The translations under genes were made by a program, and so were the position numbers. Below the pieces are notes generated by a model, which worked only from the letters and a program-made list of their open reading frames with translations, was not told the origin of the DNA and did no database searches. Shown piece after piece: positions 2,373 through 64,000 of a DNA stretch of 64,000 bases. The stretch is from an uncultured Gammaproteobacteria bacterium. Lineage in GTDB: Bacteria > Pseudomonadota > Gammaproteobacteria > GCA-001735895. Every line of letters begins with the position of its first letter. The first letter of the stretch is position 1. The stretch is taken from the NCBI GenBank assembly GCA_937894085.1, contig CALCSG010000217.1, positions 2,199 to 66,198 on the forward strand, given 5' to 3'.

Positions 2373-3020
2373 TTATTCATTTTCAGCCATTAGCTTTTTC
2401 GCTGTGCCTTTTTCCAGCCCGAACTCGAGCTCGATCATTTCATTCCAGGCAGCTCTTTTGAATGTTTTTTCATGCGGAACCTTGCGGTGTACCAGGTTGT
2501 AATGACATTCGATACAGCTTTTATCTTTAGCGTCTTCCAGGTGAATTTTACGGGTATCCGGACGATCACCGTAAATCGCCTCTTTAACATGACAGCGTTT
2601 ACAGGTTGCCGAGTCTCGATCTTTAAACCATTTCCTGGCTTCAAATGCTGCTTCTGGTAAATGCAGTGCATTCATCACGGGGTCATCATAGTTAGGGCCA
2701 AAAACAGCCCCTTTCACCTGCTTGATAACATCTTTACCTCCAATGAAATGATCCCAGGTTGCCGATATCACTCCTTCAGATACGTGACAGTCTCCACAAC
2801 TCGCCTGTACACCCGAACTGGGTTTGTAATGCTTCGACTCACGGTATGGCTCGGCAACAATTCCCATGGAATGGCAGGTCGTACAAAATTCTTCACTGCT
2901 GGTGTAATGATCAAACTCAATCAGGAAAAGAATGAACACAATACCTGCTATACCTCCAACTAACAGGGCAAACAGAACATGGCGGGTTATAAATGCGGGT
3001 AAAGGTAATTTAATCTTCAT
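2373..3020 (-). CDS. NapC/NirT/NrfH-family membrane-anchored tetraheme cytochrome c (quinol dehydrogenase)
   Basis: 215 aa with an N-terminal TM helix and four CxxCH motifs (CTTCH, CGDCH, CKRCH, CIECH) at NapC/NirT-like spacing. Overlaps the upstream octaheme gene by 11 bp. Confidence 0.85.
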   Translation of the reverse strand: MKIKLPLPAFITRHVLFALLVGGIAGIVFILFLIEFDHYTSSEEFCTTCHSMGIVAEPYRESKHYKPSSGVQASCGDCHVSEGVISATWDHFIGGKDVIKQVKGAVFGPNYDDPVMNALHLPEAAFEARKWFKDRDSATCKRCHVKEAIYGDRPDTRKIHLEDAKDKSCIECHYNLVHRKVPHEKTFKRAAWNEMIELEFGLEKGTAKKLMAENE

Positions 3021-4464
3021 TGCCTTTTCCCTGCCCGAAACCCAGTATAGGATTCGCTTTTTGCGGATGATTTAACCAGTCATGATGCTCTGAACCATTG
3101 ATATGCTTTTTGATCAGCGCATCACCTTTCTCTTTTCCAGCAACTTCACGTATCTGGGCTAGAAATTTTCCGTAAAAATCACTGCCCAGATCACTCATGC
3201 CTTTCCAGGTTGAACTGGGACTGCCCATCGCGGCACCATGCCTGGCCAGCGTTCCATGTGTATGCCACAGATTCCAGTAGGTGACTTCTAATGGTTCATC
3301 GAAAGGAAGAGGGGTCAACAGGCCTGCAGAATATAGATCCTGCATGATTGCCTGTGCAGGCTTGCCATATTTTTCATTATAAAGCTCGACCACATTATCA
3401 AATTGTGACATGGCATTTTCGCTAAACCCCTTACTGTGGCATTCCAGACAGGTTTTTGTCATCGCACCTCTGCGACGTTTAGGCGATGCAACAGCCTTAA
3501 CCTTGCCCATACTACCATCCATTTTTGAAATGCTTTCGCCACGTCCCGGTAAAGGCTCGGAGGTTGATAGTTCGCGTTTATCACCATCTTCAAAAATTAT
3601 TAAATATTGCTGTTCTGACACAGCTGAATTCAGGTTCCACGAGTCACGCATTCCAACATCGTGAGTGGATTTCATTTTTCCTGCAGCGCCCATATGACAG
3701 GTAACACAGGTAGGTGCAGCCGAATAATCCTGTCCTGCTACCCATTGATCACTGTCCATATTCATGTCTTTTTTATGTGCTTCATACATCATGCCATGCT
3801 TTGAAGTTTCATAAACTTCCTTATCGGGTGAATCGGGGCCGGAGTGACAATAAATACAGGCCTGTGGTTCACGCGCCTGTGCTTTGGAAAATGTATGCCG
3901 GCCATGACAGGCAGAACAGGAACCGACAGATCCATCAGGGTTAATTCGTCCAATACCTGAATTAGGCCAGGTGGATGGATCGAGTGAACCGTCACCACGT
4001 ACTTTAACTTCAGATCCATGGCACTTTGCACAACCCGCATCATTGATCGAAGGACTGCCAAAATGTTGAGAAAGTGCAGGCATACGGTTTTTAATAATTG
4101 ATAGAGCTTTGGTATGCACAGAACCTTTCTGTTGTTTTAATTCAGTTTCATGACAACGCCCGCAATCTTTGGGTGACACGATGGTAGCAATAATACTGCC
4201 TTCATGTTCGATAGCATCGATGTCTTCTTCATAAGCCTGATGACAATCCAGACAGTTAACATTAGCTGCCGCATGTGCACTGTTTTTCCATTGATGGGTT
4301 AATCCTGCCGAGGACCTGGCATGACAATCTACACAGGCTTTTCCTTCTTCACTACCCCAGGTACTGGAGTCCAGTGTTACTTTATCAGCCACAGCAGACG
4401 CCGAGAATAACAGGATAAATATGACTGTAAAAGCTGATAAAGGGGTCTGTGTAAAAGGCTTCAC
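3010..4464 (-). CDS. Octaheme c-type cytochrome, hydroxylamine-oxidoreductase (HAO) family-like, periplasmic
   Basis: 484 aa with a signal peptide and eight CxxCH motifs (CVDCH, CLDCH, CGRCH, CAKCH, CSACH, CIYCH, CVTCH, CLECH). No CxxCK. Coupled to a NapC/NirT (CycB-like) gene, as seen for HAO-family octahemes. Confidence 0.65.
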   Translation of the reverse strand: MKPFTQTPLSAFTVIFILLFSASAVADKVTLDSSTWGSEEGKACVDCHARSSAGLTHQWKNSAHAAANVNCLDCHQAYEEDIDAIEHEGSIIATIVSPKDCGRCHETELKQQKGSVHTKALSIIKNRMPALSQHFGSPSINDAGCAKCHGSEVKVRGDGSLDPSTWPNSGIGRINPDGSVGSCSACHGRHTFSKAQAREPQACIYCHSGPDSPDKEVYETSKHGMMYEAHKKDMNMDSDQWVAGQDYSAAPTCVTCHMGAAGKMKSTHDVGMRDSWNLNSAVSEQQYLIIFEDGDKRELSTSEPLPGRGESISKMDGSMGKVKAVASPKRRRGAMTKTCLECHSKGFSENAMSQFDNVVELYNEKYGKPAQAIMQDLYSAGLLTPLPFDEPLEVTYWNLWHTHGTLARHGAAMGSPSSTWKGMSDLGSDFYGKFLAQIREVAGKEKGDALIKKHINGSEHHDWLNHPQKANPILGFGQGKGNED

Positions 4465-4489
4465 TGCATTACTCCACTATTATTATTTT

Positions 4490-4525
4490 TAGTTATATTA
4501 AAACAGCCCCATTTAAGGGGCTAAA
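4490..4525 (-). terminator. Hairpin (agcccc-atttaa-ggggct), terminator/attenuator-like between cytochrome b and the HAO-like gene
   Basis: 6-bp GC stem at 4505-4510/4517-4522, followed on the minus strand by GTTTTAAT. Sits in the 92-bp gap between two minus-strand genes. Confidence 0.3.
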
Positions 4526-4556
4526 TTCAATTGCTGGTATTAATAAATATTTCTAA

Positions 4557-5156
4557 TTATTCTTTCTCAAAACCGAAAATCATTGCTTTGAGGTATCCAA
4601 GAAATTCATCACTGGTGGTCAAAGCCAGATACAGATGAACGATAAGAAATGCTAACAACATAAAAGCCATTGCGGTATGAATCAGCGCAATCACTAACAG
4701 GCTAACATCCCCAAGACCAATCATTGGCCAGTAAGGATAAAAAAAGTAGAGCAGACCACTTAGTACCGCAAATGGAAGCATAAAGATATGCAATGACAGG
4801 TATGCCATGCGCTGCATGGGATTTAGCTTTGAGCGTCTGGTTTTATGGTGAGGATGTTCACTACCACCAATAAATATATCCACCCCGTAATACTTCACCA
4901 TCGCTAACAATTTATTCATATTGGCAGGAATATATTGCTTCCACTCGCCGGTAACCATGTGCCAGAAAATACCCAGAAACCAGATGGCTATCAAAGACCA
5001 GGCAGCTACGATGTGAATATCAACCGCTTTTTCAAAGCCAAAAAAATCAAAAGTATCATGAATCTCAAAACCAGTTACCAGTAAGGTAATTACCAGTAAC
5101 CCCTGAGACCAGTGCCAGATCCGCTCGAAGCGGGTATACATCATGACTTCTTTCAT
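4557..5156 (-). CDS. Dihaem cytochrome b membrane subunit (Ni/Fe-hydrogenase-type cytochrome b / PhsC/CybB family)
   Basis: 199 aa with four TM helices. N-terminal RFERIWHWSQ motif and conserved His positions typical of PF01292-type cytochrome b. Start overlaps the upstream octaheme gene stop (ATGA). Confidence 0.8.
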   Translation of the reverse strand: MKEVMMYTRFERIWHWSQGLLVITLLVTGFEIHDTFDFFGFEKAVDIHIVAAWSLIAIWFLGIFWHMVTGEWKQYIPANMNKLLAMVKYYGVDIFIGGSEHPHHKTRRSKLNPMQRMAYLSLHIFMLPFAVLSGLLYFFYPYWPMIGLGDVSLLVIALIHTAMAFMLLAFLIVHLYLALTTSDEFLGYLKAMIFGFEKE

Positions 5157-6781
5157 TGTTTCTTCCTCCGTCTGGAAAATAACACTCGAACCAGACCATG
5201 CAGGCCGACCCCACCAAAAGTTCCTGCTACTGCCAGCCAGCCGATAGTGTCGAGGATGCTATTGTTATCGCGTCCCGGCATATAAAAATCTGTCAACTTA
5301 TCCAGTCTGCCGCCTTTGCTGTGGCAATCTGCACAACTTAAGGTCTGATCCTTGGGGGCAACCATATGCGCCAATGGCATGTGCATGGTGGTTTCAATGA
5401 AACCATATTCACCACTATAGTCTGCTCCCGCTTCTTTCATGGCCTCACTGATAGCACTGTCCCAGTCGTAAGATTTCCAGTAGGCAGCCTTATCCTTACC
5501 AAACAGATGGATCAGTGCCAGAGTGTTATTACCCTTGTCATAAGGTTGTTTACCGCGCATTACCTTAAAAGGCCAGATACGTGCATTCGGGTCGTCATAG
5601 GATCCGGAAAAATTATTTAACTCGACCACTTCTTGCGGATTGATTTTTTCATCCAGTTGCTTGAAATGAACATTACCGGATAACCAGGCATATTCCGGCT
5701 CAACATTTTCAGCCCATTTAAAATTTCCTTTTTTAGTGACATAGGTGACATAACCATGCTCATCTTTCATGGTGATTTCTTTTCCATCCGCATCTTTTTT
5801 ACCTGCAGTTGTCCAGTCCCACCATAATTTTGAAGGTACACCGCCTCGTGCATAAGCAGGTATGTGACAGGTCGTACAGGCTACTTTATCGGTATGATCA
5901 TTGATTTTATTATTCAAAGTCGATTTGTGTGGCGTCATCCCATGACATGACTCACAGGTAGCTCGACTATTATCATCACGTCCGGGCACATCGATACCGT
6001 GTGTATCTTTGGCAACCGGGTTATAACGACTACCTTTAACATCATGTCCATCAGTAGTATGACATTCACTACATCCAAAATTCAGGCCATCCACACCCAT
6101 GTGAACATCCAGCTCTTTTTTCGGATTGGTCATCGATGAGTCCAGATCACCGTGTTTGACTCCATCTCCGCCGCCGCCATAAAAGTGGCAGACACCGCAA
6201 TTCTCTCGACGTGTTTTACCTACCTTTTGCGCGACATCGCTTAAATCAGCCACTTTCCAGACTTTCTTACTGCCTTTCGGAAAAATCTTCTCCTTGTAGT
6301 TTGGATGACCGGCATCGGTTGGAAATTTCTTGTAGGTATCGGTAGTGTCGTGACAAACCAGACAGTCAACTTTATCTTCTGCAGTAAAATCGAAGCTGTC
6401 ATCTTTCCAGCCATAACCAATATGACAACTTGTGCAGCGTGGTTGATTACTGGTAATGGATAAACAGAAATTATTTATTACGCTTTTTTTACCGACTTCT
6501 TCACCAGTATCGGGATTGGTAAACGTCCAGTTCCAGTGCTTGGTTTTATGTAACTGTTTACTGGCCTCGGTATGACAACTGAGACAGGCTTTAGTGACTT
6601 CAGGACCTGTTTTAAAAGGTTTTTGAAGTTCTTCGAATTTACTGTGATCAGCGGTTGAAGTAGATTTTTTGGTAGTTGCACTTTCCTGCATAGCCAGACT
6701 TACACTGGCAAAACTGCTCAGATAAAGACACAGCGATATCAGAAAAGCAGATGTTTTATAACTGCTATTACGGGAAATCAT
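5153..6781 (-). CDS. Octaheme c-type cytochrome, OTR (octaheme tetrathionate reductase)-like, with C-terminal TM anchor
   Basis: 542 aa with a signal peptide and eight CxxCH motifs (CLSCH, CTSCH, CLVCH, CGVCH, CSECH, CESCH, CTTCH, CADCH). Hydrophobic C-terminal helix followed by RRRKKQ. Translationally coupled to the cytochrome b gene. Confidence 0.6.
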   Translation of the reverse strand: MISRNSSYKTSAFLISLCLYLSSFASVSLAMQESATTKKSTSTADHSKFEELQKPFKTGPEVTKACLSCHTEASKQLHKTKHWNWTFTNPDTGEEVGKKSVINNFCLSITSNQPRCTSCHIGYGWKDDSFDFTAEDKVDCLVCHDTTDTYKKFPTDAGHPNYKEKIFPKGSKKVWKVADLSDVAQKVGKTRRENCGVCHFYGGGGDGVKHGDLDSSMTNPKKELDVHMGVDGLNFGCSECHTTDGHDVKGSRYNPVAKDTHGIDVPGRDDNSRATCESCHGMTPHKSTLNNKINDHTDKVACTTCHIPAYARGGVPSKLWWDWTTAGKKDADGKEITMKDEHGYVTYVTKKGNFKWAENVEPEYAWLSGNVHFKQLDEKINPQEVVELNNFSGSYDDPNARIWPFKVMRGKQPYDKGNNTLALIHLFGKDKAAYWKSYDWDSAISEAMKEAGADYSGEYGFIETTMHMPLAHMVAPKDQTLSCADCHSKGGRLDKLTDFYMPGRDNNSILDTIGWLAVAGTFGGVGLHGLVRVLFSRRRKKQ

Positions 6782-6866
6782 GATACCCCCTCCCTAAAGT
6801 TTATTGCTTATAGTATCTCTGACCAAAGGCTGTAGACATTCATCTACAGCCTTTACCAGAACCCTC

Positions 6867-8156
6867 TTACAAGGAGTTTTCAGCCGAAGCAATCATCTTC
6901 GGAGCAGTTACATCTGTGGGGAGTTTAGTAAACTTTTTAACCAGACCAGGCCATAGCAGGTTGTAATATAACTCTGCACGAACCAGCTCTACACCTTTAG
7001 CAGGTATCGAGTATTCCAGGTCACGTTTTTCAAATGCTTTCAATCGAGTATCTGCACCCTGACCTTTTGCAGTTGGTGGACCTGTTGGCTTTCCATCACC
7101 ATCAACTAGAGTCAAAAACATAAATGCTTGTTTATCTTCTTTAGCGGGGTGGCCTTTAGCATTTTGCCAAACTACATTTCCGCTCTTATCATAAGCTGAA
7201 ATCTTTACATAGATATTTCTAAAGGGAGCGCCTGTAGGCATGGTATGTGGCTGTTTATTCTTAATCGTAACAGTCGACATTATGTTACCGCCATTCTTCT
7301 TACTGTCCATACTGAATAGTACTGAACGCTGTAACATACCCAAATCATGTCCACCGCCCATACTGTGATCGGCTACAGCATCATTAGTCGGCATGTGGCA
7401 TGACAGGCAATCAACCTGTGCATTACTGGCAATGTATTCATCACCCGTTGCACATAGAGGAACACCGTGAGAATTATTGCGCTTATCATGACAACCCATG
7501 CAAGCATCTGAACTTCTCAACTGCGTTGGGTTACTTTCCATAGGCATCGCCTGAATGGTCTTACCATCAATGGTTACCGCCTCGCCCAGATGTGGGTTCG
7601 GTTTTTGATCTGCTTCTCCACCACCAAAACCAAATGCATCACCGGCTGATGCCAGTTTCTGTAATTTAGTATTAGAATGGCGACCGGATCCCTGCAGCAC
7701 GTCAGAAACTTCATATGCCATCATACCGAGCTGCATTTTTCCATTTGCGGCGGTAGTACCTTTAAATTTTTTCAATGTATGACAGGCTACGCAGTTGACG
7801 CCTTCAGCATAGGCAGGTGTCGCGTCAAGTTTGGTCTTTTTATCTTTGGCGGCATTCGGGGCATGGCACTGTATACAAACTGGAAATTTGCCTGCTTTTG
7901 TTTTTACACCCTCCTGACCAGGATCACCAACAACGTTTCTATAAAATGTTCCATGAATGGGATCGTTGAACGCGGTACTGTTCGCATGCATCGAACCTTT
8001 CCATTGTTTATAGATTTCTTTATGGCAGGTTTTACAGGTTTCAGATGAGACCTGGTGAATTGATTTGTCAGCAAACACATTTGTAGCTGAGACTAAACTT
8101 AAACCACAAAATACAATTGCTGAAAATAACATCGAAGTTTTTGTCTTGTTGCGCAT
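6867..8156 (-). CDS. Pentaheme c-type cytochrome with a ~150-aa haem-free C-terminal domain
   Basis: 429 aa with a signal peptide and five CxxCH motifs (CKTCH, CIQCH, CVACH, CMGCH, CLSCH). First gene of the minus-strand cytochrome cluster, with a 494-bp AT-rich upstream region. Confidence 0.7.
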   Translation of the reverse strand: MRNKTKTSMLFSAIVFCGLSLVSATNVFADKSIHQVSSETCKTCHKEIYKQWKGSMHANSTAFNDPIHGTFYRNVVGDPGQEGVKTKAGKFPVCIQCHAPNAAKDKKTKLDATPAYAEGVNCVACHTLKKFKGTTAANGKMQLGMMAYEVSDVLQGSGRHSNTKLQKLASAGDAFGFGGGEADQKPNPHLGEAVTIDGKTIQAMPMESNPTQLRSSDACMGCHDKRNNSHGVPLCATGDEYIASNAQVDCLSCHMPTNDAVADHSMGGGHDLGMLQRSVLFSMDSKKNGGNIMSTVTIKNKQPHTMPTGAPFRNIYVKISAYDKSGNVVWQNAKGHPAKEDKQAFMFLTLVDGDGKPTGPPTAKGQGADTRLKAFEKRDLEYSIPAKGVELVRAELYYNLLWPGLVKKFTKLPTDVTAPKMIASAENSL

Positions 8157-8650: not shown

Positions 8651-11542
8651 TTATATTTGAGCTAAAAGTAGTTTTTTCATTTCAGCAGAGGGCACTGCCG
8701 GACTAAACAAATATCCCTGCATCTGATCACAGCCCTCAGCAAGCAATAGCTCAAATTGCTGAGGAGTTTCCACACCTTCGGCGATCAGATGCAGGTTCAT
8801 GCTTTTACCTAAGGCTATAATAGCCCGGGTAATTGCCAGATCCTCCTGGTCGCCGGGTAGATCACGCACAAATTCACGATCAATTTTCAATTTATCTACC
8901 GGAAACCGCTTTAGATAACTGAGCGATGAATAACCTGTCCCAAAGTCATCAATGGCTAAATCGACTCCCAAAGATTTTAATGCATTGAGTGTATGAATCG
9001 CCTGCTCGGCATTTTCCATTAACATGCTTTCGGTTATTTCCAGCTCAAGATAACCAGCATCAAGCCCGGATATCTGCAATATCTGCTGCACTTGCGAAAC
9101 AATATCAGCTTGAGTGAGCTGACGTGCTGATAAATTGACTGACATTTTTAGCGCAGGTAACCCGGCCCGCTGCCACTCAACGGCCTGACGACAGGCCTCG
9201 AACAGTACCCACTTTCCTATCGGTTCTATCAACCCGCTTTCTTCTGCGAAGGGAATAAACTGGTTTGGAGATACCAGACCTGTTTGCGGATGCTCCCAGC
9301 GTATCAGAGCTTCCATGCCAACTATCTGGTTAGAACTTAATTCGATCTGAGGTTGATAATAAAGACGAAATTCTTCACGATTTAACGCATGCCGCAAATC
9401 AACCTGAAGCTTTTGACGCTCTTTGGCGATGGCTGTCAGAGTATCAGAAAAGTACTGAAATCCATTGCGCCCCAGGTCTTTAGCCCGATACATAGCAGCA
9501 TCCGCATTTTTAATCAGGGTGTCGACATTTTCGCCCTGCTCAGGATAAATCGAGATACCGATACTACTGGAAACAAAAAGCTCATGACCGTCAATAGCAA
9601 ACGGCTTTCTGAATCTTTCCAGTATCTTCTCTGCGACCAGAGCGGCATCCTGTGGTTGATCAATCTGCTCAACCAGAATTAAAAACTCATCGCCACCCTG
9701 ACGTGCAACGGTATCACCCTGACGCACAATTTCCTTTAAAATCGTTGACGCACTCTGTAATAATTTATCGCCTACCGCATGCCCAAGAGAGTCATTGACC
9801 TCCTTAAAATTATCCAGATCTATGAACAATAAAGCCATATTCACTTTGCTTCGACTGGCTCGATGAATGGCATGTTCCAGGCGTAACTGAAATAACATGC
9901 GATTCGGTAAATTCGTCAGCGGATCGTGATGTGATAAATATTCAAGTCGCTGCTGGGTTTCTTTAATTGCACTTATATCACCGAAAACACCTACATAATT
10001 TGTCAGCTTACCGGTTTCATCTTTGAGTGTATTTATAGTCAGCCACTCCGGGTAAAGCTCACCTGATTTGCGCCTATTCCAGATTTCTCCCTGCCAATAA
10101 CCTTTTGCCTTAATAGATGACCACATTTCTATAAAGAAAGGGTTTTTATGTTGCCCGGAATGCAGGAATGAGGGATTCCTGCCGATGACTTCCTGTTCGC
10201 TATAACCAGTAATTTCTGTAAATGCCGGGTTGACACTGACAATATTGACATCAGCATCGGCAATAATCACACCTTCCACGGTTGACTCTACAATCTTGGC
10301 CGCCAGTAACTGCTGCTTTTCAGCCTGCTTTCGGCGCGAAATATTCCTGATGACACCTGAAATAGCCAAAGGTATACCATCATCATCCGCAATGGCTCGA
10401 GAGATAGCCTCTACGTCAACAAAATCACTATTGATACTATTTAGTTTAAACTCTGCAACGCAGTGCTCCTCCCTGGCGATAGCCTGGTCGGAAAATAGCT
10501 TCACACAACGATCATGATCTACAGGGTCAACAAATTCACTCCAGTGACGGGCCAGGGAAGACTCAACTGAATTTCCCGTAAGCTTTTCCCATGCGGGACT
10601 GAGAAACTCCCAGCAGCCATTAATATCGATACGAAAAAGCACATCTTCCATATTATTAATGACGGTTCTATAGGCTTCTCTACTTTCTTTTAATTCAGTT
10701 TCCCGTTTACCGATATTTTCCGCCATAGAATTAAATGCGAGACTTACCTGGTCCATATCCTGATCGGCTTCTCTATTCAGACGTACAGAGTAATCACCAT
10801 TTGAAAGCCTGACGGTGGCCGCATTCATACTTTTCATTCGCTTCAGAAGAATTCGATTCAACATCCAGGATGCGATAATTAAACTGACAAGAAAAATTAA
10901 TGTCTTAAGGATCAGCTCTTTTTTCAGCTCGGACAATAACCTGTCCTGGAAAAGTTGAGCGGGCAATTTTATACTTAAAATTCCCCGTAAATCATCAAGT
11001 TTATAACCATAGGCGGTATCATAATTTTCACTGATACTGGCCGGCGCATTTTTTTGTTCTCCATGGCAGACAAGACATTGGGTAACTATGCGCAGAGGTG
11101 CTGAAAAGTGATAAGCCTGTTCCCCGGTGGGTTTAATAAAAGGTACAAACCTGTCTGTCGCCTGTGGGTTCTGTCTGAAATAATTCATTGCCTCCAGTTC
11201 CACACTATCGGCCTGATTCTGAGGGTTTCTGGGTCTGTCCGAAACACTGTTAAACCATATACCATCATCAGTTAATAAATTATATTCTTTTGCGATTCTA
11301 CTAATTGAGTGAGCCGGCAAAAAACGGATAGTTTTATCATTAACGGAAATATTTTCTTCGATGAATACCCGTTGATAAACTCGCCGCATGGAAACCAGAA
11401 CACCCTGTAATATTTTTGATTCCCGGTAGATGCCGGCTTTAACGGATTCGACACTGAGTAGATAGCCACGATATTCCACCAGCCCAAATGCCAGTAACAT
11501 AATACCGCTTATTGCAAAAAGTGTTTTTGTCTGGAGATTCAT
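8651..11542 (-). CDS. Signalling protein: periplasmic haem-c sensor domain (CxxCH, DUF3365/Tll0287-like) - TM - HAMP - 2xPAS - GGDEF - EAL
   Basis: 963 aa. N-terminal TM, then a periplasmic domain with CLVCHGEQ, then a second TM plus HAMP. PAS domains, GGDEF (RQGGDEFLIL) and EAL (EALIRW...DDFGTGYSS) motifs are intact. Confidence 0.85.
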   Translation of the reverse strand: MNLQTKTLFAISGIMLLAFGLVEYRGYLLSVESVKAGIYRESKILQGVLVSMRRVYQRVFIEENISVNDKTIRFLPAHSISRIAKEYNLLTDDGIWFNSVSDRPRNPQNQADSVELEAMNYFRQNPQATDRFVPFIKPTGEQAYHFSAPLRIVTQCLVCHGEQKNAPASISENYDTAYGYKLDDLRGILSIKLPAQLFQDRLLSELKKELILKTLIFLVSLIIASWMLNRILLKRMKSMNAATVRLSNGDYSVRLNREADQDMDQVSLAFNSMAENIGKRETELKESREAYRTVINNMEDVLFRIDINGCWEFLSPAWEKLTGNSVESSLARHWSEFVDPVDHDRCVKLFSDQAIAREEHCVAEFKLNSINSDFVDVEAISRAIADDDGIPLAISGVIRNISRRKQAEKQQLLAAKIVESTVEGVIIADADVNIVSVNPAFTEITGYSEQEVIGRNPSFLHSGQHKNPFFIEMWSSIKAKGYWQGEIWNRRKSGELYPEWLTINTLKDETGKLTNYVGVFGDISAIKETQQRLEYLSHHDPLTNLPNRMLFQLRLEHAIHRASRSKVNMALLFIDLDNFKEVNDSLGHAVGDKLLQSASTILKEIVRQGDTVARQGGDEFLILVEQIDQPQDAALVAEKILERFRKPFAIDGHELFVSSSIGISIYPEQGENVDTLIKNADAAMYRAKDLGRNGFQYFSDTLTAIAKERQKLQVDLRHALNREEFRLYYQPQIELSSNQIVGMEALIRWEHPQTGLVSPNQFIPFAEESGLIEPIGKWVLFEACRQAVEWQRAGLPALKMSVNLSARQLTQADIVSQVQQILQISGLDAGYLELEITESMLMENAEQAIHTLNALKSLGVDLAIDDFGTGYSSLSYLKRFPVDKLKIDREFVRDLPGDQEDLAITRAIIALGKSMNLHLIAEGVETPQQFELLLAEGCDQMQGYLFSPAVPSAEMKKLLLAQI

Positions 11543-11685: not shown

Positions 11686-13122
11686 TTATTTAATAATTGC
11701 TGCAAACTCTTTAACCAGTGCATCAGCAGTAATACCATTAGCAAATTTAGTCACAAAGCTGCCATCCGGGGCCATTAAATAAAGGCTGGCTGTATGGTCC
11801 ATGGTATAAAGGCTCGAATCTGATTTATCTCTCGGGCCTTTTTCATACTTAACCCTGAACTGATCGGCAACCCGTTTTATCATCTGTTCAGAACCGGTAA
11901 GCCCAATCAGGCGTTGATCAAAGTAACTGACATAATTTCGTAACAGTTTTACCGTATCCCGTTCAGGATCAACAGAAATGAAATAAGGTTGAACCTGCTC
12001 TGCCAGTACACCCATCTGTTGCAGTGCCTGAGTCAATACCGTTAAACTGGTTGGACACACATCAGGGCAGGAAGTATAACCAAAAAACACCAGTGAATAT
12101 TTTCCCTTCATATCCTGTTCAGTCACAGTTTGTCCAAGATGATTGGTCAGAAAGAAACGCCCTCCCAACCCATCAATGACGGGACTATCGTCACCATAGG
12201 CCGCCATCCTTGCTTTTGCGGCAGCATCCAGATTAGCATTCAGACATCGCTTGATGACATCTGTATTGTATTCCATCAATTTAAGATAAAGTTCCGGCCC
12301 CGCTTGCAGATCAAGCCCCAGAGTATCCAGTTCACCAATATTTATACTCTGCCCTGCGGTTAACAACTGAAGATTTTTCGCTGGCATACTCTTGTCTATA
12401 AACAAACATGCAGCTTCATGACTGGTTATTCTTGTCCTGACTTTAAGCAAGTCTGTAACCCTTTCTACATCCCACGGAGAACCAGAAACTCGATCCAGTG
12501 TTTGCAGCGCATAGGCCTGCTCAAAATAATTCAGGTTGTCATAATACGAAACGCCGAGACCGGCTTTTAATCCTCGATATCCATATTCGTATTCTTTATC
12601 AATACGACGTAACGGATCCAGCATGGCCATTCGATTTCTAATATAAATATGGGAGCGGGCAGGGTCCAGCTGGACCAGCGCTTCGGTCAACTCATCTAAC
12701 ATGATGATTGCATTACGGTCATCCATCCAGAAAAAGGGATCTCGAAAATCGGGATTCTGTCGTGACGGTAAAATTTTCAGATCGGGGCTGGACAGTAACT
12801 CGATAACTTTGACCGTTTCTGGTAACTGGCTCACTGTTGACTGCAAGGTTTTTTCCAGTTCCTGGCCTACCCAGATAAATAAGCTGGATTCAGCAAGCTG
12901 CTGTTGCTGAGTTTCGCTTAACTCAAAGTTATAGGGTGTGTTTTTTCCATCAATTAACAGCAGGGGCTCGCCTATATCCTGCATCAGGCCGGAGACTATA
13001 GAATGCACCGGTTTAATACTGGTCACCACCCTGAATTTATTTGCTGACCAGGCAGGCAGACTGGTAACCATCAACCCACAACTAACGAGCAGGATAAATA
13101 GCGGAAGAATTTTTTTTATCAT
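11686..13122 (-). CDS. Fusion protein: ZnuA/TroA-like periplasmic metal-binding-fold domain + SCO1/SenC copper chaperone (thioredoxin-like, CxxxCP)
   Basis: 478 aa. The N-terminal half aligns to the ZnuA architecture (VVTSIKPVHSIV...LFIWVGQELE). The C-terminal half carries the SCO1/SenC signature GKYSLVFFGYTSCPDVCP. Signal peptide present. Confidence 0.7.
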   Translation of the reverse strand: MIKKILPLFILLVSCGLMVTSLPAWSANKFRVVTSIKPVHSIVSGLMQDIGEPLLLIDGKNTPYNFELSETQQQQLAESSLFIWVGQELEKTLQSTVSQLPETVKVIELLSSPDLKILPSRQNPDFRDPFFWMDDRNAIIMLDELTEALVQLDPARSHIYIRNRMAMLDPLRRIDKEYEYGYRGLKAGLGVSYYDNLNYFEQAYALQTLDRVSGSPWDVERVTDLLKVRTRITSHEAACLFIDKSMPAKNLQLLTAGQSINIGELDTLGLDLQAGPELYLKLMEYNTDVIKRCLNANLDAAAKARMAAYGDDSPVIDGLGGRFFLTNHLGQTVTEQDMKGKYSLVFFGYTSCPDVCPTSLTVLTQALQQMGVLAEQVQPYFISVDPERDTVKLLRNYVSYFDQRLIGLTGSEQMIKRVADQFRVKYEKGPRDKSDSSLYTMDHTASLYLMAPDGSFVTKFANGITADALVKEFAAIIK

Positions 13123-13457
13123 TGCTTAAAGTTTAATTCAATCTGCTTTATTGCGGCATCAACCTGTTGCGTGAAATCCTGTGAATCAGGACAGGAAGAA
13201 TTGTTACTCATAAAATTCATGAATGAGTCATTGGTTGCTTGTTCAAACCAGTCACCTAATACCCGCTGTTTGGGTAAGTGCACCACTAAAGTCAGCTTGA
13301 TTCGCTGCATTTGATCCATGTAACGACATTGCAGCGCAACTCCATTGAGCTGCCCCATACCGGCTATTGCCGATAATTGATCTGGTGTTGCGGCACCAGC
13401 TGGTGCAAACCACAATAAGCTTGCGATTAACGGGACTATTAACTGACTACTTTTCAT
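13119..13457 (-). CDS. Hypothetical secreted protein (signal peptide, conserved Cys pair)
   Basis: 112-aa ORF. Its stop overlaps the start of the SCO1 fusion (ATGA), so the two genes are coupled. Confidence 0.5.
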   Translation of the reverse strand: MKSSQLIVPLIASLLWFAPAGAATPDQLSAIAGMGQLNGVALQCRYMDQMQRIKLTLVVHLPKQRVLGDWFEQATNDSFMNFMSNNSSCPDSQDFTQQVDAAIKQIELNFKQ

Positions 13458-13477: not shown

Positions 13478-14344
13478 TTAATGTTCGATATTTTCATCGT
13501 TTAACATTTTCAATAAATGGTCGGGGATTTCTCTGGCGCGGGAAAAATTTGCACCCGTTAATACGGCGTTGTTAAATCGTGTATTTTGAAGAAGTGATTC
13601 ACTAAAATTTGCGTTATCAAGGCGCGCACCATTTAATAAAGAATTGCTTATATTGGCACCAGTAAAATCAGAATTTTCCAGTGCGCCACCGGTTAACACC
13701 ACGTTATAAAATGTACTGTCTCGCAGTTTGCTGCCAATCAAAACCGCCCGCTGCATAAAACAGCCGACAAATTTACTTCTATTAAAATTACTTTCTTCCA
13801 TCGCAATATCTTTCATGTAGGCGGTTGTGAAATCAGCCTGCTCGGCAAACACTTCATTTAAATTAGCGCCAAACATATTGGCCCTGGTAAATTGACTGTT
13901 GCTCAGGTTGGCACCATCAAATGTGGTGTGAAAAAGATCGGCTTCGGTCATATCCACCTGTTCCATCTGACACTCGGTTAAAATGGCCCATTTCAAATCT
14001 GCCTTACGAAGGCTTGAGCCAGTTAGATTGCATCCGGAAAGCTTCGCATTAGATAGATCCACACCATCCAGTATTGACCCTTGTAAATCAATACCCTCTA
14101 AAGACCTGCCTGCAAAGGAGCAATGTCTCAGATCGGTTGCTGCCTGTGGAGACTCACAATCACCTTTTTCTGCTGCATAAAGTGAAACAGCAGGGAAAAG
14201 AGCCGCAAATATAAATGTAAATAGAACTGTTCTGATCGATCGCACAAATAATTCCCGGTCTGATATTTCTAGCTGCTTGACAAACAGCAGGAATGACCGT
14301 CTATTAAACAAGATAAACGGGTCGTTGACTTTGATATTGATCAA
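13478..14344 (-). CDS. Pentapeptide-repeat protein (secreted)
   Basis: About 200 aa of A(D/N)LxX-type pentapeptide repeats (ANLSNSQFTRANMFGANLNE...). N-terminal hydrophobic segment. The true start may lie downstream of the annotated Met. Confidence 0.75.
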   Translation of the reverse strand: MINIKVNDPFILFNRRSFLLFVKQLEISDRELFVRSIRTVLFTFIFAALFPAVSLYAAEKGDCESPQAATDLRHCSFAGRSLEGIDLQGSILDGVDLSNAKLSGCNLTGSSLRKADLKWAILTECQMEQVDMTEADLFHTTFDGANLSNSQFTRANMFGANLNEVFAEQADFTTAYMKDIAMEESNFNRSKFVGCFMQRAVLIGSKLRDSTFYNVVLTGGALENSDFTGANISNSLLNGARLDNANFSESLLQNTRFNNAVLTGANFSRAREIPDHLLKMLNDENIEH

Positions 14345-14402: not shown

Positions 14403-15080
14403 ATGCTTTTAAAATTCACTCTAGTTGTTTGTTCTTTATTGTACCTGTCTTCAGCGGTAGCTTCGGAGGTCGATTATGACCCCGATATCGGCAATGAAAT
14501 TAATGAAGTTTGTGCTGGCTGTCATGGCGAATACGGGCAGGGTGGAAAAGAAGGATTATACCCCCGACTGGCAGGTATGCCGGCTGTTTTCATCGCAAAA
14601 CAGCTTGAATTGTTCAGAAGCCACAAACGCCCTAATATGCCGATGCTGCAATATATTGATGAACGTCAAATGCCGGATCAGGACATCTTAAATATTTCCA
14701 TTTATCTTTCTAAAATAAAACTCAATACACGGTTACCCCCTGTCGATGAAACAGCCGCCGATTTTGACGCTTATGCGCGTTTGCTGGAATCTAAAAAATT
14801 AATGCAAATTCCACGCGCAAAAGGCAATGTGGAAAATGGCTTAAAACTTTACAAAAAAGAATGTGCAAGTTGTCACGGTAAAGATGGTTATGGAATAGAT
14901 AAAAAAGGCGTTCCCTTATTAGCCGGGCAATACACCAGTTACCTGTGGAAACAGGTGGATAAATTGCGTAAAAAAATCAGGATTCACGATATAGATGAAC
15001 CCGATACAGAATTACTTAATGATTTTAGTGATCAGGAGCTGACAGATATATTTGCGTGGTTATCTACAGCGGACGATTAA
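14403..15080 (+). CDS. Dihaem cytochrome c4-family protein
   Basis: 225 aa with a signal peptide and two CxxCH motifs (CAGCH, CASCH) in two c-type domains. Confidence 0.8.
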   Translation: MLLKFTLVVCSLLYLSSAVASEVDYDPDIGNEINEVCAGCHGEYGQGGKEGLYPRLAGMPAVFIAKQLELFRSHKRPNMPMLQYIDERQMPDQDILNISIYLSKIKLNTRLPPVDETAADFDAYARLLESKKLMQIPRAKGNVENGLKLYKKECASCHGKDGYGIDKKGVPLLAGQYTSYLWKQVDKLRKKIRIHDIDEPDTELLNDFSDQELTDIFAWLSTADD

Positions 15081-60965: not shown

Positions 60966-61463
60966 CTAATACGTCTGTTTGCTCGTAATAAATCGATAAG
61001 GTATTTTTATTAGTTTATTGCCTGTATCCAGATGCACCACCGATTCCCACTCCATAGTACTTCTGGTGCAAAATGTTAGTGCGCTCTTAGCGCTGTAATG
61101 GCCGTTTCCAGTATGCTTTAAATTAACGAAATTAGGTGGCATTTTCATATCGGTGCCATTGATATCAACTGAAACATTATCGACAGTCATACCAGAAATA
61201 ATTACTTCGAGTGTTAACTGATCACTGATCGGAATCGAACGTGGTTGTATGGCAAAACTTACACTACTCCCATCTGCTAAAATCGTCTCGCAGGGACCTG
61301 CACGTAAATCACAGGAAGGATCAAAGGCTAAGCTGACTGGTATTAGGGAATGATTCAGATTCATAAACCATTGCTGATAAATAACCCAGCTTAGGACTAG
61401 AAAAAACAGTAGCATAGCTACAATCCAGTTAAGTTTACTGATTTCTTCAAAAGCTTTTTTCAT
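60966..61463 (-). CDS. Hypothetical membrane-anchored periplasmic protein (last gene of the NosL/ABC module)
   Basis: 165 aa. One N-terminal TM helix, two Cys and a beta-rich periplasmic domain. 20 bp downstream of the NosY-like gene. Confidence 0.45.
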   Translation of the reverse strand: MKKAFEEISKLNWIVAMLLFFLVLSWVIYQQWFMNLNHSLIPVSLAFDPSCDLRAGPCETILADGSSVSFAIQPRSIPISDQLTLEVIISGMTVDNVSVDINGTDMKMPPNFVNLKHTGNGHYSAKSALTFCTRSTMEWESVVHLDTGNKLIKIPYRFITSKQTY

Positions 61464-61483: not shown

Positions 61484-62311
61484 CTAAGGTAAATCGCTAC
61501 GTTGAAAAAAGAAATATCCTGTACCGGCACAGATACTTCCAAAAACTACCGGATATATGACCGCATAGGCAATATAACCAGCCTGCGAGAAGTTATCAAG
61601 AATGATATAGGCCGTCGGTCCTAACAGCACCAGTTGCGGGTCAAATAACATCATGGTCGCGGTGCGAAACACCTGCATCGGGTTTGCCAGTGCGATTGCC
61701 ACTGCTGTTTGCGGAGGCAGGTTCTCCTGGATCATAATTCCCAGCAGGATTAAATCGAGGAACAATAGCAATGTTAACCAGGTAATAAATGCCGCACCCT
61801 GAGCAACATCTGATGAACGTGCCAGGGTTGATATCAACATACCAATACCTAAAAAGCACCATGCCAGCGCCATTAATAAAGCAGTATAGTAAATAAAAAG
61901 GTTCCAGGGTATTTCCGAATCCTTGATTACACCCCAGATTACCGCACCGAGCATAGCAAGAAAAACAGGCAGAAAGACCACAAAAAAGCGCCCGAAGAAA
62001 CGCCCCCAGAACCAGGCAGCTAATGATACCGGTAATGACAGCATGTATTCAAAGACGCCGGCCTCTCGATCTCCTGCTACCGAACGCACTGTTGTTATTA
62101 ATACAAAAATGGGCAGTATGGCCATCGACAGTTGTATGTAGGTCACCAGTAAACGCGATAAACCGGTAAATCCCATAATACGTGATTCGGACAGGCCAAA
62201 GGCGAACAACAGCACCACTATGCCCCCAAATACCAGCGAATAAACCATAAACCAGCGTGCGCGCAGAGATTCAATTATGTCAGTATATGCCGTTAACCAG
62301 AGATGTTTCAT
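61484..62311 (-). CDS. ABC-2 family permease, NosY-like
   Basis: 275 aa, six TM. Overlaps the NosL-like gene by 4 bp. Confidence 0.7.
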   Translation of the reverse strand: MKHLWLTAYTDIIESLRARWFMVYSLVFGGIVVLLFAFGLSESRIMGFTGLSRLLVTYIQLSMAILPIFVLITTVRSVAGDREAGVFEYMLSLPVSLAAWFWGRFFGRFFVVFLPVFLAMLGAVIWGVIKDSEIPWNLFIYYTALLMALAWCFLGIGMLISTLARSSDVAQGAAFITWLTLLLFLDLILLGIMIQENLPPQTAVAIALANPMQVFRTATMMLFDPQLVLLGPTAYIILDNFSQAGYIAYAVIYPVVFGSICAGTGYFFFQRSDLP

Positions 62312-62814
62312 TGTGTGTTTTCCCGTTGTTTTGCCTGCTCTCTGAGACGTTGCTCTAATTGTAATCCATGCACATTGAATCGCTGTTCAACTTCACTGAT
62401 ATGAACTTTTGCACGATCAAAACTCATGCTGCCACTAACAGCTTCAAGTTGAGCCCCCAGACCGTATTCCATTGGTGTGGTTTTCTTCAGTACGTAAGTT
62501 GCTGTGGTGGCATCGATCCATTCTTTACTACGATGATCAGCTACCCAGAACTCCGTCCTTCCATCATCTTTCCACGGTTTATCTTCAAGCCACAGGGCTG
62601 CACATCCGAAGTCATCAAATTTTTCTACCACAGAACGTTTTTTCCCAGCAGGATAGTAACGAATCTGAGCTGCAAAATGCGGATCGCTCAACACCATGCG
62701 ACAACGCTCACAGGCATCTCTGTCCCATTTAATCTCTAGCGGACCTGTGTCCGGTTCACCGGAGCAGGCTGTCAGTAAGGTTATAAATATTAGCGATAGT
62801 AATCTAGCCAACAT
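62308..62814 (-). CDS. NosL-family copper-binding lipoprotein
   Basis: 168 aa. Lipobox LLTAC, a DACERCRM metal-binding motif (CxxCxM as in NosL), and conserved KFDDFGC...DATTATYV blocks. Confidence 0.7.
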   Translation of the reverse strand: MLARLLSLIFITLLTACSGEPDTGPLEIKWDRDACERCRMVLSDPHFAAQIRYYPAGKKRSVVEKFDDFGCAALWLEDKPWKDDGRTEFWVADHRSKEWIDATTATYVLKKTTPMEYGLGAQLEAVSGSMSFDRAKVHISEVEQRFNVHGLQLEQRLREQAKQRENTQ

Positions 62815-63694
62815 TTTCTACACCAGTTTGTTGCTGTTCGCCTGCTTCCTTCATCTGTATGCCGGCCAACAGGGCCGCATAACGTGATAACATACCGAGA
62901 AATCGTAACCGATCCGGCCCGGCAACTATGCCTTTCCATGTTGTGCGGTGATCGTCTTCCGTTTTAAAACCCCATTCGGTGAGTGCCCTGGCAAAAGCAT
63001 CTTCATGGCGAATCATCGAGATACTGCACAGCAACATGCTGGACATATCGACCAGGTCGGCCACTTCGTCATCCAGCACAATTTTCCCCTGATCCATTTC
63101 AACAACCCGGTTCACCAGCGATGCTACTTCATCCAGCCGGTGGCTGGAAATCAACATGGCAGAAGTTTTCTGTTTTTCGGCTAATAGTTTAAACAGAATA
63201 TGCCTGGCTTCCGGATCGAGATTAGCAGCAGGTTCATCCATCACCAGTAATTCACTATCACGCCCGAGAGCGATGGAAATTAACAGTTTCTGTTTCTGCC
63301 CACCGGATAATTTGACGAAAGGTTGATGCTTAAATTGAAGCGCATCAAAACCCAGTTGTTTTGCTACATCTATCATGCGTTGCGGATCAGCATTACACAG
63401 GCTTGACGCAAACCGGATCAACTGACCCACAGGCATTCTCAGCGGGGGAGGCAATTGCGGTACAAAACCCACTTTGGATAAAACCTGCTGACGAAATTCA
63501 CGCGGGTTCATGTCATCGATAGTGACACTGCCAGTACAGTTATACTCGCCTAACAGGCAACGAATTAAGGTCGTTTTACCCGCACCGTTTGAACCGACCA
63601 GAGCAACACGATGACCACGCTGGATAGTTAAATCTATACCCTTCAGCACTTCATTGCGGCGAAATTTTTTAGTGACGTTTGAAAATTGAATCAT
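62804..63694 (-). CDS. ABC transporter ATP-binding protein, NosF-like (start taken at internal Met MIQFSNV; the track ORF extends further 5')
   Basis: Walker A GSNGAGKTT, signature LSGGQKQKL, Walker B LLVMDEP. An upstream ferredoxin ORF occupies the region that the longer ORF would overlap. Confidence 0.75.
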   Translation of the reverse strand: MIQFSNVTKKFRRNEVLKGIDLTIQRGHRVALVGSNGAGKTTLIRCLLGEYNCTGSVTIDDMNPREFRQQVLSKVGFVPQLPPPLRMPVGQLIRFASSLCNADPQRMIDVAKQLGFDALQFKHQPFVKLSGGQKQKLLISIALGRDSELLVMDEPAANLDPEARHILFKLLAEKQKTSAMLISSHRLDEVASLVNRVVEMDQGKIVLDDEVADLVDMSSMLLCSISMIRHEDAFARALTEWGFKTEDDHRTTWKGIVAGPDRLRFLGMLSRYAALLAGIQMKEAGEQQQTGVENVG

Positions 63695-63731: not shown

Positions 63732-64000
63732 CTAAAGGAATTTATCCAGACCCTTAATCTTGAAATTGAGTGAATCGGTTGGGCAAACATCGACACACAT
63801 ACCACAACGGGTACAGTCTGACGTAATATCCTGATTAACTTCATGAGCACGACCGCGAATAGTTAAATCAAGCACATGCGGTACCAGGCATATTTTCCGA
63901 CAATCCCCTTCATGATGACAGGCTTCGGCGTTATACACGACACGCACCGGTGAAAACGTACCTACGACAGCATAGGTAACACCAATAGGGCAGACATAAC
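63732..64000 (-). CDS. 4Fe-4S ferredoxin-domain protein, 3' portion (gene continues beyond the window end)
   Basis: CTRCGMCVDVCP and an upstream CPIGV cluster motif. The minus-strand frame is open to position 64000. Confidence 0.55.
   Translation of the reverse strand, partial: YVCPIGVTYAVVGTFSPVRVVYNAEACHHEGDCRKICLVPHVLDLTIRGRAHEVNQDITSDCTRCGMCVDVCPTDSLNFKIKGLDKFL

Follow-up and report, generated by a model that had tools for sequence, protein, structure and literature searches.

A ZnuA-like domain fused to a Sco1/SenC domain: a candidate copper-centre maturation factor linked to clade II nitrous oxide reductase in sulfur-oxidising Gammaproteobacteria

A transmembrane helix at the N-terminus or a lipid anchor tethers classical Sco proteins, and Paracoccus denitrificans mutants in senC2 and pcuC lose nitrous oxide (N2O) reduction at low copper, both according to a review (PMC7558416). 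A senC paralogue is reported in the nos cluster of Bacillus azotoformans (PMC3475470). An involvement of Sco with N2O reductase (NosZ) and the presence of senC in a nos cluster are hence already noted in the literature. The loading of the CuA centre of this enzyme is poorly understood, especially for the Sec-exported clade II NosZ. Here, we describe a protein family that offers a concrete, cluster-encoded candidate for this step. Its representative is a gene of 478 codons at 11686..13122 (−) in a 64,000-nucleotide stretch of DNA—the window—from contig CALCSG010000217.1 of an uncultured Gammaproteobacteria bacterium, and it fuses a ZnuA-like domain to a Sco1/SenC domain, as seen from the reading frame, Pfam, an AlphaFold2 model and fold matches. 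The fusion and its small neighbour u112, a secreted protein of 112 residues, are uncharacterised, and literature searches found no published description of a ZnuA-like/Sco fusion, of its degenerate site or of u112. Judging from sequence and gene context, we propose with a probability of roughly 60% that the fusion is a Sco-type copper-centre maturation factor of the Sec-dependent (clade II) N2O reductase in sulfur-oxidising Gammaproteobacteria, in which the ZnuA-like domain would serve as a docking module that does not bind metal.

The gene is a single uninterrupted open reading frame (ORF) with an ATG start. A fusion of this kind had been read from the sequence in the original prediction, and it is confirmed by two Pfam profiles that are matched over their full length and above cutoff: PF01297 (ZnuA) by residues 32–293 (profile positions 1–263 of 263, E 4.9e-33, 115 bits against a cutoff of 29) and PF02630 (SCO1-SenC) by residues 320–456 (positions 1–134 of 134, E 3.2e-49, 166.8 bits against a cutoff of 22.8). 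The first corresponds to a domain with the fold of cluster A-I solute-binding proteins (12244..13029, −), the second to the thioredoxin-fold, copper-binding Sco1/SenC domain (11755..12165, −). They are joined by a variable linker (residues 294–319; 12166..12243, −) and preceded by a predicted Sec signal peptide, MIKKILPLFILLVSCGLMVTSLPAWSA (residues 1–27; 13042..13122, −), read from the sequence and with an inferred cleavage. The N-terminal membrane anchor typical of Sco was not found; the N-termini of the fusion family rather resemble signal peptides that are presumably cleaved. A lipoprotein reading of the LLVSC stretch in the N-terminus was ruled out, because the family does not conserve Cys15 and only 14 of 209 members show a lipobox-like motif. 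The fusion protein is hence predicted to be soluble and periplasmic.

The AlphaFold2 model—built on 116 family sequences—reaches a mean predicted local distance difference test score (pLDDT) of 85 and a predicted template modelling score (pTM) of 0.60. Linker residues 310–321 fall below a pLDDT of 50, which together with this pTM means that a rigid packing of the two domains is not supported by the model. In a Foldseek search of the model against the PDB, no chain among the solved structures carries both a ZnuA and a Sco fold. That two genes were merged by an assembly, frameshift or gene-calling artefact, the outcome that the original prediction had named as its own refutation, is practically negligible: the reading frame is unbroken, the linker region is continuous in all relatives, and the identical protein is found on 9 independent contigs. 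Furthermore, the same architecture and length recur in at least 120 protein clusters from independent assemblies (both domains, 470–500 residues, 58–100% identity) and in at least 129 reference genomes, counted in a scan of one genome per species.

The fusion is widely conserved among sulfur-oxidising Gammaproteobacteria. Its carriers comprise Candidatus Thioglobus/SUP05, metagenome-assembled genomes (MAGs) of Piscirickettsiaceae, the lucinid symbionts Candidatus Thiodiazotropha, the endosymbionts of the tubeworms Escarpia and Lamellibrachia, Chromatiales, Thiohalophilus and cultured Sedimenticola strains. When the N-terminal domain alone was searched exhaustively with HMMER against 1.84 billion representatives, about 21 clusters scored 174–311 bits before a sharp break, beneath which ordinary ZnuAs of about 30% identity follow. 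Most of these clusters are 463–526 residues long, consistent with a fusion, and a few are standalone proteins of 293–314 residues. Public annotation of the family is inconsistent, "zinc ABC transporter solute-binding protein" in some cases versus "SCO family protein" in others.

The Sco domain is canonical, with its CxxxC and His intact. It superposes on Bradyrhizobium japonicum ScoI (4wbj; template modelling (TM) score 0.89, 46% identity) and on human SCO1 (1wp0; TM score 0.92), and it carries the Sco motif FFGYTSCPDVCP. The copper-binding and redox motif C352-P-D-V-C356 (12055..12069, −) and His443 of a "DH" pair (11794..11796, −), the third copper ligand, align with the known copper ligands of ScoI/SCO1; across 209 fused sequences, C352, C356 and H443 are conserved in 209, 209 and 208 members. 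The full-length profile match, the fold and these ligands bear out the bona fide SCO1 C-terminus of the original prediction. In a Thiohalophilus MAG, a plain SCO gene exists separately from the fusion and lies 1.1 kb downstream of it (L089, 12498–13127).

The link to N2O reductase arises from gene context, which was counted over 80 retained genome loci, 49 of them at least 15 kb long. By conserved co-localisation, the fusion is a component of the clade II nos gene cluster: a nos gene is present within the locus in 52 of the 80 loci (34 of the 49 long ones), and nosZ itself is in the cluster in 41 of 80. In 32 loci, u112, fusion and nosZ stand in this order on one strand with 75–320 bp between fusion and nosZ; in 7 loci, u112 and fusion come after a run from nosZ to nosY, and 2 loci have a divergent nosZ. 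For relatives at 59–75% identity, u112 and fusion directly follow the nos cluster (nosB-D-G-H-F-L-Y, adjacent in loci L005–L009), where the pair is preceded by two cytochrome c genes, a 400-residue polytopic membrane protein (NosB-like), NosD, NapG-like and NapH-like Fe-S proteins, NosF, NosL and NosY. Even a fused member whose N-terminal domain is only 37% identical likewise ends a nos cluster as its last gene, with a u112 homologue before it. TIGR04246 identifies the neighbouring enzyme of 768 residues as a Sec-dependent NosZ (877 bits, cutoff 625). It has the CuA motif CTEFCSALHLEM and a Sec-type leader; neither a twin-arginine leader nor a haem motif was found in it.

Some further features of these clusters can be appreciated. 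The clade II NosZ next to the fusion bears a conserved C-terminal extension of about 130 residues after the CuA domain (L036, ~13490–13882; also L062 and L080), which looks helical and has no haem motif. A 401-residue gene upstream of nosD was considered as a propeller-only (clade III, lactonase-type) NosZ and was ruled out, as it encodes a polytopic, NosB-like membrane protein without a Pfam hit. Genes for a MenA-like prenyltransferase and a UbiE/MenG-type methyltransferase recur beside the pair (L019, 11415–13848; L084, 7832–9100; L083, 3235–3978; L008, 16805–17437); in L019, the three genes 3′ of the fusion are MenA-like (UbiA family), SBF and UbiE. A connection between menaquinone synthesis and the NosGH-type quinol dehydrogenase module of these clusters might underlie this recurrence.

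With Sco classically serving cytochrome oxidase (PMC7558416), the fusion might instead be a general Sco factor for haem-copper oxidases—for CuA of the aa3-type or for cbb3 biogenesis—so that its adjacency to nos genes would merely reflect a shared respiratory island. About 30% of the long loci have no nos genes nearby, and a PCuAC gene (PF04314, 113 bits) located directly downstream of one fused member fits oxidase CuA assembly equally well. However, none of the annotated loci has an oxidase subunit gene beside the pair, clustering and Pfam return only housekeeping families as neighbours in the 28 loci that lack nos genes, and the same-strand arrangement directly upstream of nosZ in 32 loci speaks against this reading, which we regard as unlikely. 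The recurrent UbiA-family neighbour was also considered as a haem O synthase and was ruled out, being MenA-like (TIGR00751, 170 bits against a cutoff of 102). Of the role in cytochrome oxidase or copper-centre maturation that the original prediction had suggested, copper-centre maturation is well supported. The oxidase link is not supported, since the context points to clade II N2O reductase and no oxidase gene recurs near the pair in the loci that lack nos genes.

The N-terminal half superposes on Escherichia coli ZnuA (2osv) with a TM score of 0.88 and 2.6 Å and shows the two-lobe fold with its long connecting helix (Foldseek, AlphaFold2 model). Its metal site is replaced. In HMMER alignments with the Salmonella and E. 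coli ZnuA, the Glu-His of ZnuA corresponds to Pro63-Tyr64, the second His to Phe130 and the third His to Tyr194; Asp266 of the LDxLG motif is retained. The first replacement had been noticed in the original prediction as PYNFE where EHDY is expected, which is correct and understated, as all three His are replaced. Over the 209 fused sequences, the position of Tyr64 (12931..12933, −) is occupied by Tyr in 144, Phe in 40, His in 9, Leu in 7, Gln in 3 and Trp in 2; that of Phe130 (12733..12735, −) by Phe in 183, Tyr in 18, His in 6 and Val in 2; that of Tyr194 (12541..12543, −) by Phe in 125, Tyr in 66 and His in 17; and that of Asp266 (12325..12327, −) by Asp in 188 and Asn in 21. Hereby, 188 of 209 members, the window protein included, lack His at all three positions. 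As a control, 118, 118, 117 and 117 of 118 canonical ZnuA representatives show H, H, H and D at these columns of a joint alignment. Because Phe cannot ligate metal and the first position is variable, the aromatic residues do not make a substitute metal site.

The His-rich loop of ZnuA proper was not found either. HMMER splits or gaps this region against loop-bearing ZnuAs, and a short LKILPSR segment stands there instead; the best match in a single stretch is the Salmonella mutant with a deletion of loop 119–141 (2xh8). A short conserved loop, K116-I-L-P-S-R121 (12760..12777, −), lies in the segment that holds the His-rich loop in the E. coli protein. Within this loop, only K116 and S120 are specific to the family, with L118 and R121 being conserved in canonical ZnuAs as well. 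Additionally, R127 is near-invariant in the family and His in 77% of canonical ZnuAs, and the invariant motif E179-Y-G-Y-R-G184 (12571..12588, −) is found in 96–100% of the family and in at most 12% of canonical ZnuAs. For 81 species-level sequences, the mean pairwise identity is 0.54 for the ZnuA-like domain, 0.60 for the Sco domain and 0.32 for the linker. To judge from the alignment, the ZnuA-like domain is thus under purifying selection and not decaying.

The NCBIfam equivalogs for ZnuA (PRK09545) and AztC (NF040870) score 84 bits against cutoffs of 268 and 350, respectively. A ZnuBC-type permease or ATPase gene is not adjacent in the window or in the Pfam-annotated loci, and a reference-based screen of the 80 loci returned only the ABC-2 (ATP-binding cassette) genes NosFY. 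Since the ZnuA half lacks the metal ligands, falls short of the equivalog cutoffs and has no transporter genes linked to it in these loci, zinc-binding protein is the wrong name for it—and the label "zinc ABC transporter solute-binding protein" emerges as a systematic mis-annotation.

Could the ZnuA-like domain nevertheless, by analogy with AdcA, bind copper, zinc or another metal, with the tethered Sco domain, NosL or an importer as the recipient? The fold is fully intact, Asp266 and the scaffold motifs of ZnuA are retained, some members keep one His, AdcA (7jj9) shows that a ZnuA-like domain can be joined to a metallochaperone domain, and NosL is reported to form a heterometal site (PMC8457098). 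Moreover, five Candidatus Thiodiazotropha genomes (L056, L058, L064, L065 and L067; fusion genes at about 10001–11434 in full-length loci) encode the full set of H, H, H (in LPHQF, DPHFWLD and QYHDT), together with an Asn at position four. In a rough neighbor-joining tree, these nest among relatives with partial or no His, and a basal clade keeps the third His only. Taken from this tree, their placement would imply a regain of His or many parallel losses, and marks the pocket positions as evolutionarily labile. Against metal binding stand the 188 members without His, with Phe as the commonest residue at two positions and the first one varying between Y, F, L, Q and W; the missing His-rich loop; NCBIfam cutoffs that are missed by a factor of at least 3; and the loci examined, in which no gene for a cognate ABC permease or ATPase adjoins the fusion. 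We therefore consider metal transfer by this domain quite improbable for the family. From the sequence of the window protein, it appears contradicted there, and for the H, H, H subclade, it is possible. The binding-protein fold feeding a copper chaperone that the original prediction had envisaged is accordingly not supported, its ligands being aromatic with Phe common at all three positions and no ZnuBC-type genes being adjacent.

The gene u112 (13119..13457, −) encodes a secreted four-helix-bundle protein with two invariant Cys (C44 and C89). The protein belongs to no known family; its signature is LNGxALxC...LPKxR...CP. The overlap with a secreted protein of 112 residues that had been pointed out before amounts to 4 nt (ATGA) between the u112 stop and the fusion start, which suggests translational coupling. 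Among the 75 loci whose upstream DNA extends far enough, 74 have u112 as the gene immediately preceding the fusion. Homologues are also found before the distant fused member and before one standalone ZnuA-like gene (E 7e-15 and E 3e-19, respectively), which argues that the partnership of u112 is with the ZnuA-like domain and not with Sco. Standalone, ligand-poor ZnuA-like genes are located at L096 (1868–4333) and L093 (3179–5159); one standalone gene lacks u112 and shares an operon with genes for a DsbA-like thioredoxin and a DsbD_TM protein, and another does have a u112 homologue, with two genes for PpiC-type rotamases and a DUF6901 gene coming after the ZnuA-like gene.

Following the proposal that the fusion serves clade II NosZ, a mechanism can be sketched. 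Apo-NosZ would be exported unfolded via Sec, and the Sco domain might then keep the two CuA cysteines of NosZ reduced and/or hand copper to the CuA site, while CuZ would be served by NosL and NosDFY. This action of Sco on CuA is drawn from the parallel with Sco on oxidase subunit II and from the senC2 phenotype of P. denitrificans. The surroundings of other family members likewise relate to copper or thiols, with the PCuAC gene directly after one fused member and the DsbA-like and DsbD_TM genes of one standalone member. The ZnuA-fold domain would take the place of the usual Sco membrane anchor. More tentatively, this domain and u112—possibly also the periplasmic pentapeptide protein described below—might form a docking platform or scaffold that positions or regulates the flexibly tethered Sco domain. 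We suggest such a role because the ZnuA-like domain has lost its three-His site and is yet conserved about as strongly as Sco, with EYGYRG, K116 and R127 in place.

A mechanistic variant of this would be a Sco domain that acts mainly as thiol-disulfide reductase, keeping the CuA cysteines of NosZ or the cysteines of u112 reduced, with copper arriving from NosL or a PCuAC-type protein. The thioredoxin fold and a weak AhpC-TSA similarity of the Sco domain in Pfam agree with this, as do family members beside DsbA-like, DsbD_TM and PCuAC genes, including one Sedimenticola paralogue that has a DsbA-like gene on its upstream side. Thermus divides these tasks, with reduction carried out by Sco and copper delivered by PCuAC. 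The conservation of the copper ligand His443 in 208 of 209 members, however, suggests selection for metal binding. A predominantly reducing role is thus a possibility that we hold with some reserve; it is compatible with the maturation role proposed above, and the two can coexist.

Several points weigh against a dedicated NosZ maturation factor. Copper binding, the client and the contact between the N-terminal domain and u112 are all inferred. In the model of the Einsle group (PMC8457098), NosL supplies all twelve copper ions, those of CuA included. Within the family, 15 of the 49 long loci, mostly from Sedimenticola, have no nos gene within 10 kb; the cultured Sedimenticola selenatireducens BK-1 (L088, L090) carries two u112/fusion paralogue pairs, both away from nos genes; and no nos gene accompanies the standalone ZnuA-like/u112 pair, which adjoins genes for peptidyl-prolyl isomerases and a sulfite reductase. 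For the H, H, H subclade of Candidatus Thiodiazotropha, furthermore, the description as non-metal-binding fails, so that it does not hold for the whole fusion family. Lastly, the fusion of the window is located about 48 kb from nosY, and nosZ would lie beyond the window edge; it was not seen upstream of nosY in this exact genome, for which the NosY look-up matched short contigs only.

This last distance can be traced to a single block. The tail of a nos cluster is found at the far end of the window, all on the (−) strand: a partial NosH (63735–64000), NosF (62804–63694), NosL (62308–62814), NosY (61484–62311) and u165 (60966–61463), the latter four retrieved by tblastn with the genes of locus L008 at 86%, 68%, 96% and 58%, respectively. 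In the 75%-identical relatives L008, L013 and L014, the nosHFLY-u165 counterparts directly adjoin the cytochrome c, u112 and fusion genes. In the window, a housekeeping block of about 46 kb (15100–60900) separates these two groups—with TRAP DctM, an Orn/Lys decarboxylase, a 1634-residue NAD-GDH, Na/Pi and PHO4 transporters, a sigma-54 regulator, a CHASE-PAS sensor, Lon and SulP. It is this inserted block that puts the fusion so far from nosY, and its absence in the three relatives points to a lineage-specific rearrangement. The gene u165 itself (165 residues; L008, 6200–6697) follows nosY in the SUP05-like clade and encodes an N-terminal hydrophobic helix; the L008 homologue bears a CxxxxxxC motif, and u165 has no hit in Pfam or NCBIfam. 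It may be another uncharacterised nos accessory gene.

Upstream of u112, the next genes are those of a pentapeptide-repeat protein and a cytochrome c, as had been noted originally, and both recur within nos-cluster contexts. The secreted pentapeptide-repeat protein (13478..14245, −; Pfam Pentapeptide, E 7e-41) ends 20 bp before u112 and is the probable first gene of the operon. It is present in 24 of 80 loci and directly upstream of u112 in 16; a secreted location is unusual for this protein family. The listed ORF of 288 residues has its TTG start inside an FNR-type palindrome (14245–14344 region), and the true start is probably GTG 14245, which gives 255 residues, as in the database gene calls, beginning with a signal peptide. 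In divergent orientation, a c4-like di-haem cytochrome c (14403..15080, +; two Cytochrom_C stretches in Pfam) follows, which is 82% identical to the L008 homologue adjoining nosY-u165 and is a recurrent neighbour in the SUP05-like clade.

The divergent promoter region between the pentapeptide-u112-fusion operon and the cytochrome c gene holds a perfect palindrome of the FNR/CRP family, TTGATATTGATCAA (14331..14344). This TTGAT-N4-ATCAA box is the only perfect one in the 64-kb window, where 0.09 are expected. Of 70 relatives, 24 have similar boxes, 17 of these boxes being perfect, in the 300 bp that precede u112, where 0.07 are expected per region. Anaerobic control of the FNR/Dnr/Nnr type is usual for denitrification genes, and the boxes would fit such a control of this operon. 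A general scan for promoters and terminators returned fewer sites than in shuffled sequences.

On the 3′ side of the fusion, a protein of 963 residues with a PAS-GGDEF-EAL-like appearance by eye (8651–11542, −) lies between the fusion and a multi-haem cluster. It carries a CxxCH haem motif (QCLVCHG) in its N-terminal region, and the protein as a whole is absent at that position in L008. The cluster comprises five genes for multi-haem cytochromes and cytochrome b (2373–8156, −; C554-like, cytochrome_cB, Ni_hydr_CYTB, multi-haem and NapC/NrfH-like) and is conserved in L008, L013 and L014 at 82–89% identity.

N2O reductase is the enzyme that consumes a greenhouse gas, and the fusion most likely helps to load its copper. 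The candidate sits in ecologically important N2O-cycling bacteria—SUP05 of the oxygen-minimum zones, chemosynthetic symbionts and Sedimenticola—and cultured carriers exist. Its architecture of a pseudo-binding-protein domain and a new small partner, u112, is unusual, and the triads ranging from H, H, H to aromatic residues provide a natural series for studying how a metal-binding fold is repurposed. Going further, one might speculate that the ZnuA-fold domain and an obligate u112 form a periplasmic module that docks Sco onto apo-NosZ, NosB or NosDFY-NosL, or that captures scarce copper in sulfidic water. This would be the missing CuA-assembly pathway of the Sec-type N2O reductase in SUP05, the lucinid and tubeworm symbionts and Sedimenticola, with a toggling between His and aromatic residues tuning its function. 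We offer this extended picture as a rather unlikely one.

How does the fusion compare to the described systems? With ScoI/SenC (4wbj; SenC2 of P. denitrificans), it shares the thioredoxin fold, the copper site of CxxxC and His, and the periplasmic location. Unlike these, it bears a cleavable-looking signal peptide and a ZnuA-fold domain of 260 residues in place of the anchor of classical Sco proteins, is paired with u112 and is encoded inside clade II nos clusters. With ZnuA/TroA (2osv), it has in common the two α/β lobes and the long helix, the motifs KPxHS, WVGxxLE, DPxxWxDxxN, YFExxY and LDxLG, and two conserved Cys (C239 and C293). In contrast to ZnuA, its His ligands and Glu are replaced, the His-rich loop is absent, EYGYRG, K116 and R127 are extra, and no ZnuBC genes are adjacent.

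The closest likeness in domain arrangement is AdcA of Streptococcus pneumoniae (7jj9)—the only such solved protein in the fold-search list—which combines an N-terminal ZnuA-like domain with a C-terminal, metallochaperone-type (ZinT-like) domain. Both domains of AdcA bind zinc and feed an ABC importer. The fusion, on the contrary, has a copper/thiol Sco domain at its C-terminus, a degenerate N-terminal site and no linked importer, so that the resemblance is architectural only. Among the nos genes, it is none of the named ones, and the B. azotoformans example is a plain, membrane-bound SenC. Nevertheless, like the accessory factors NosL, NosDFY, NosB and NosGH, the fusion is co-localised, and probably co-regulated, with nosZ-nosB-D-G-H-F-L-Y.

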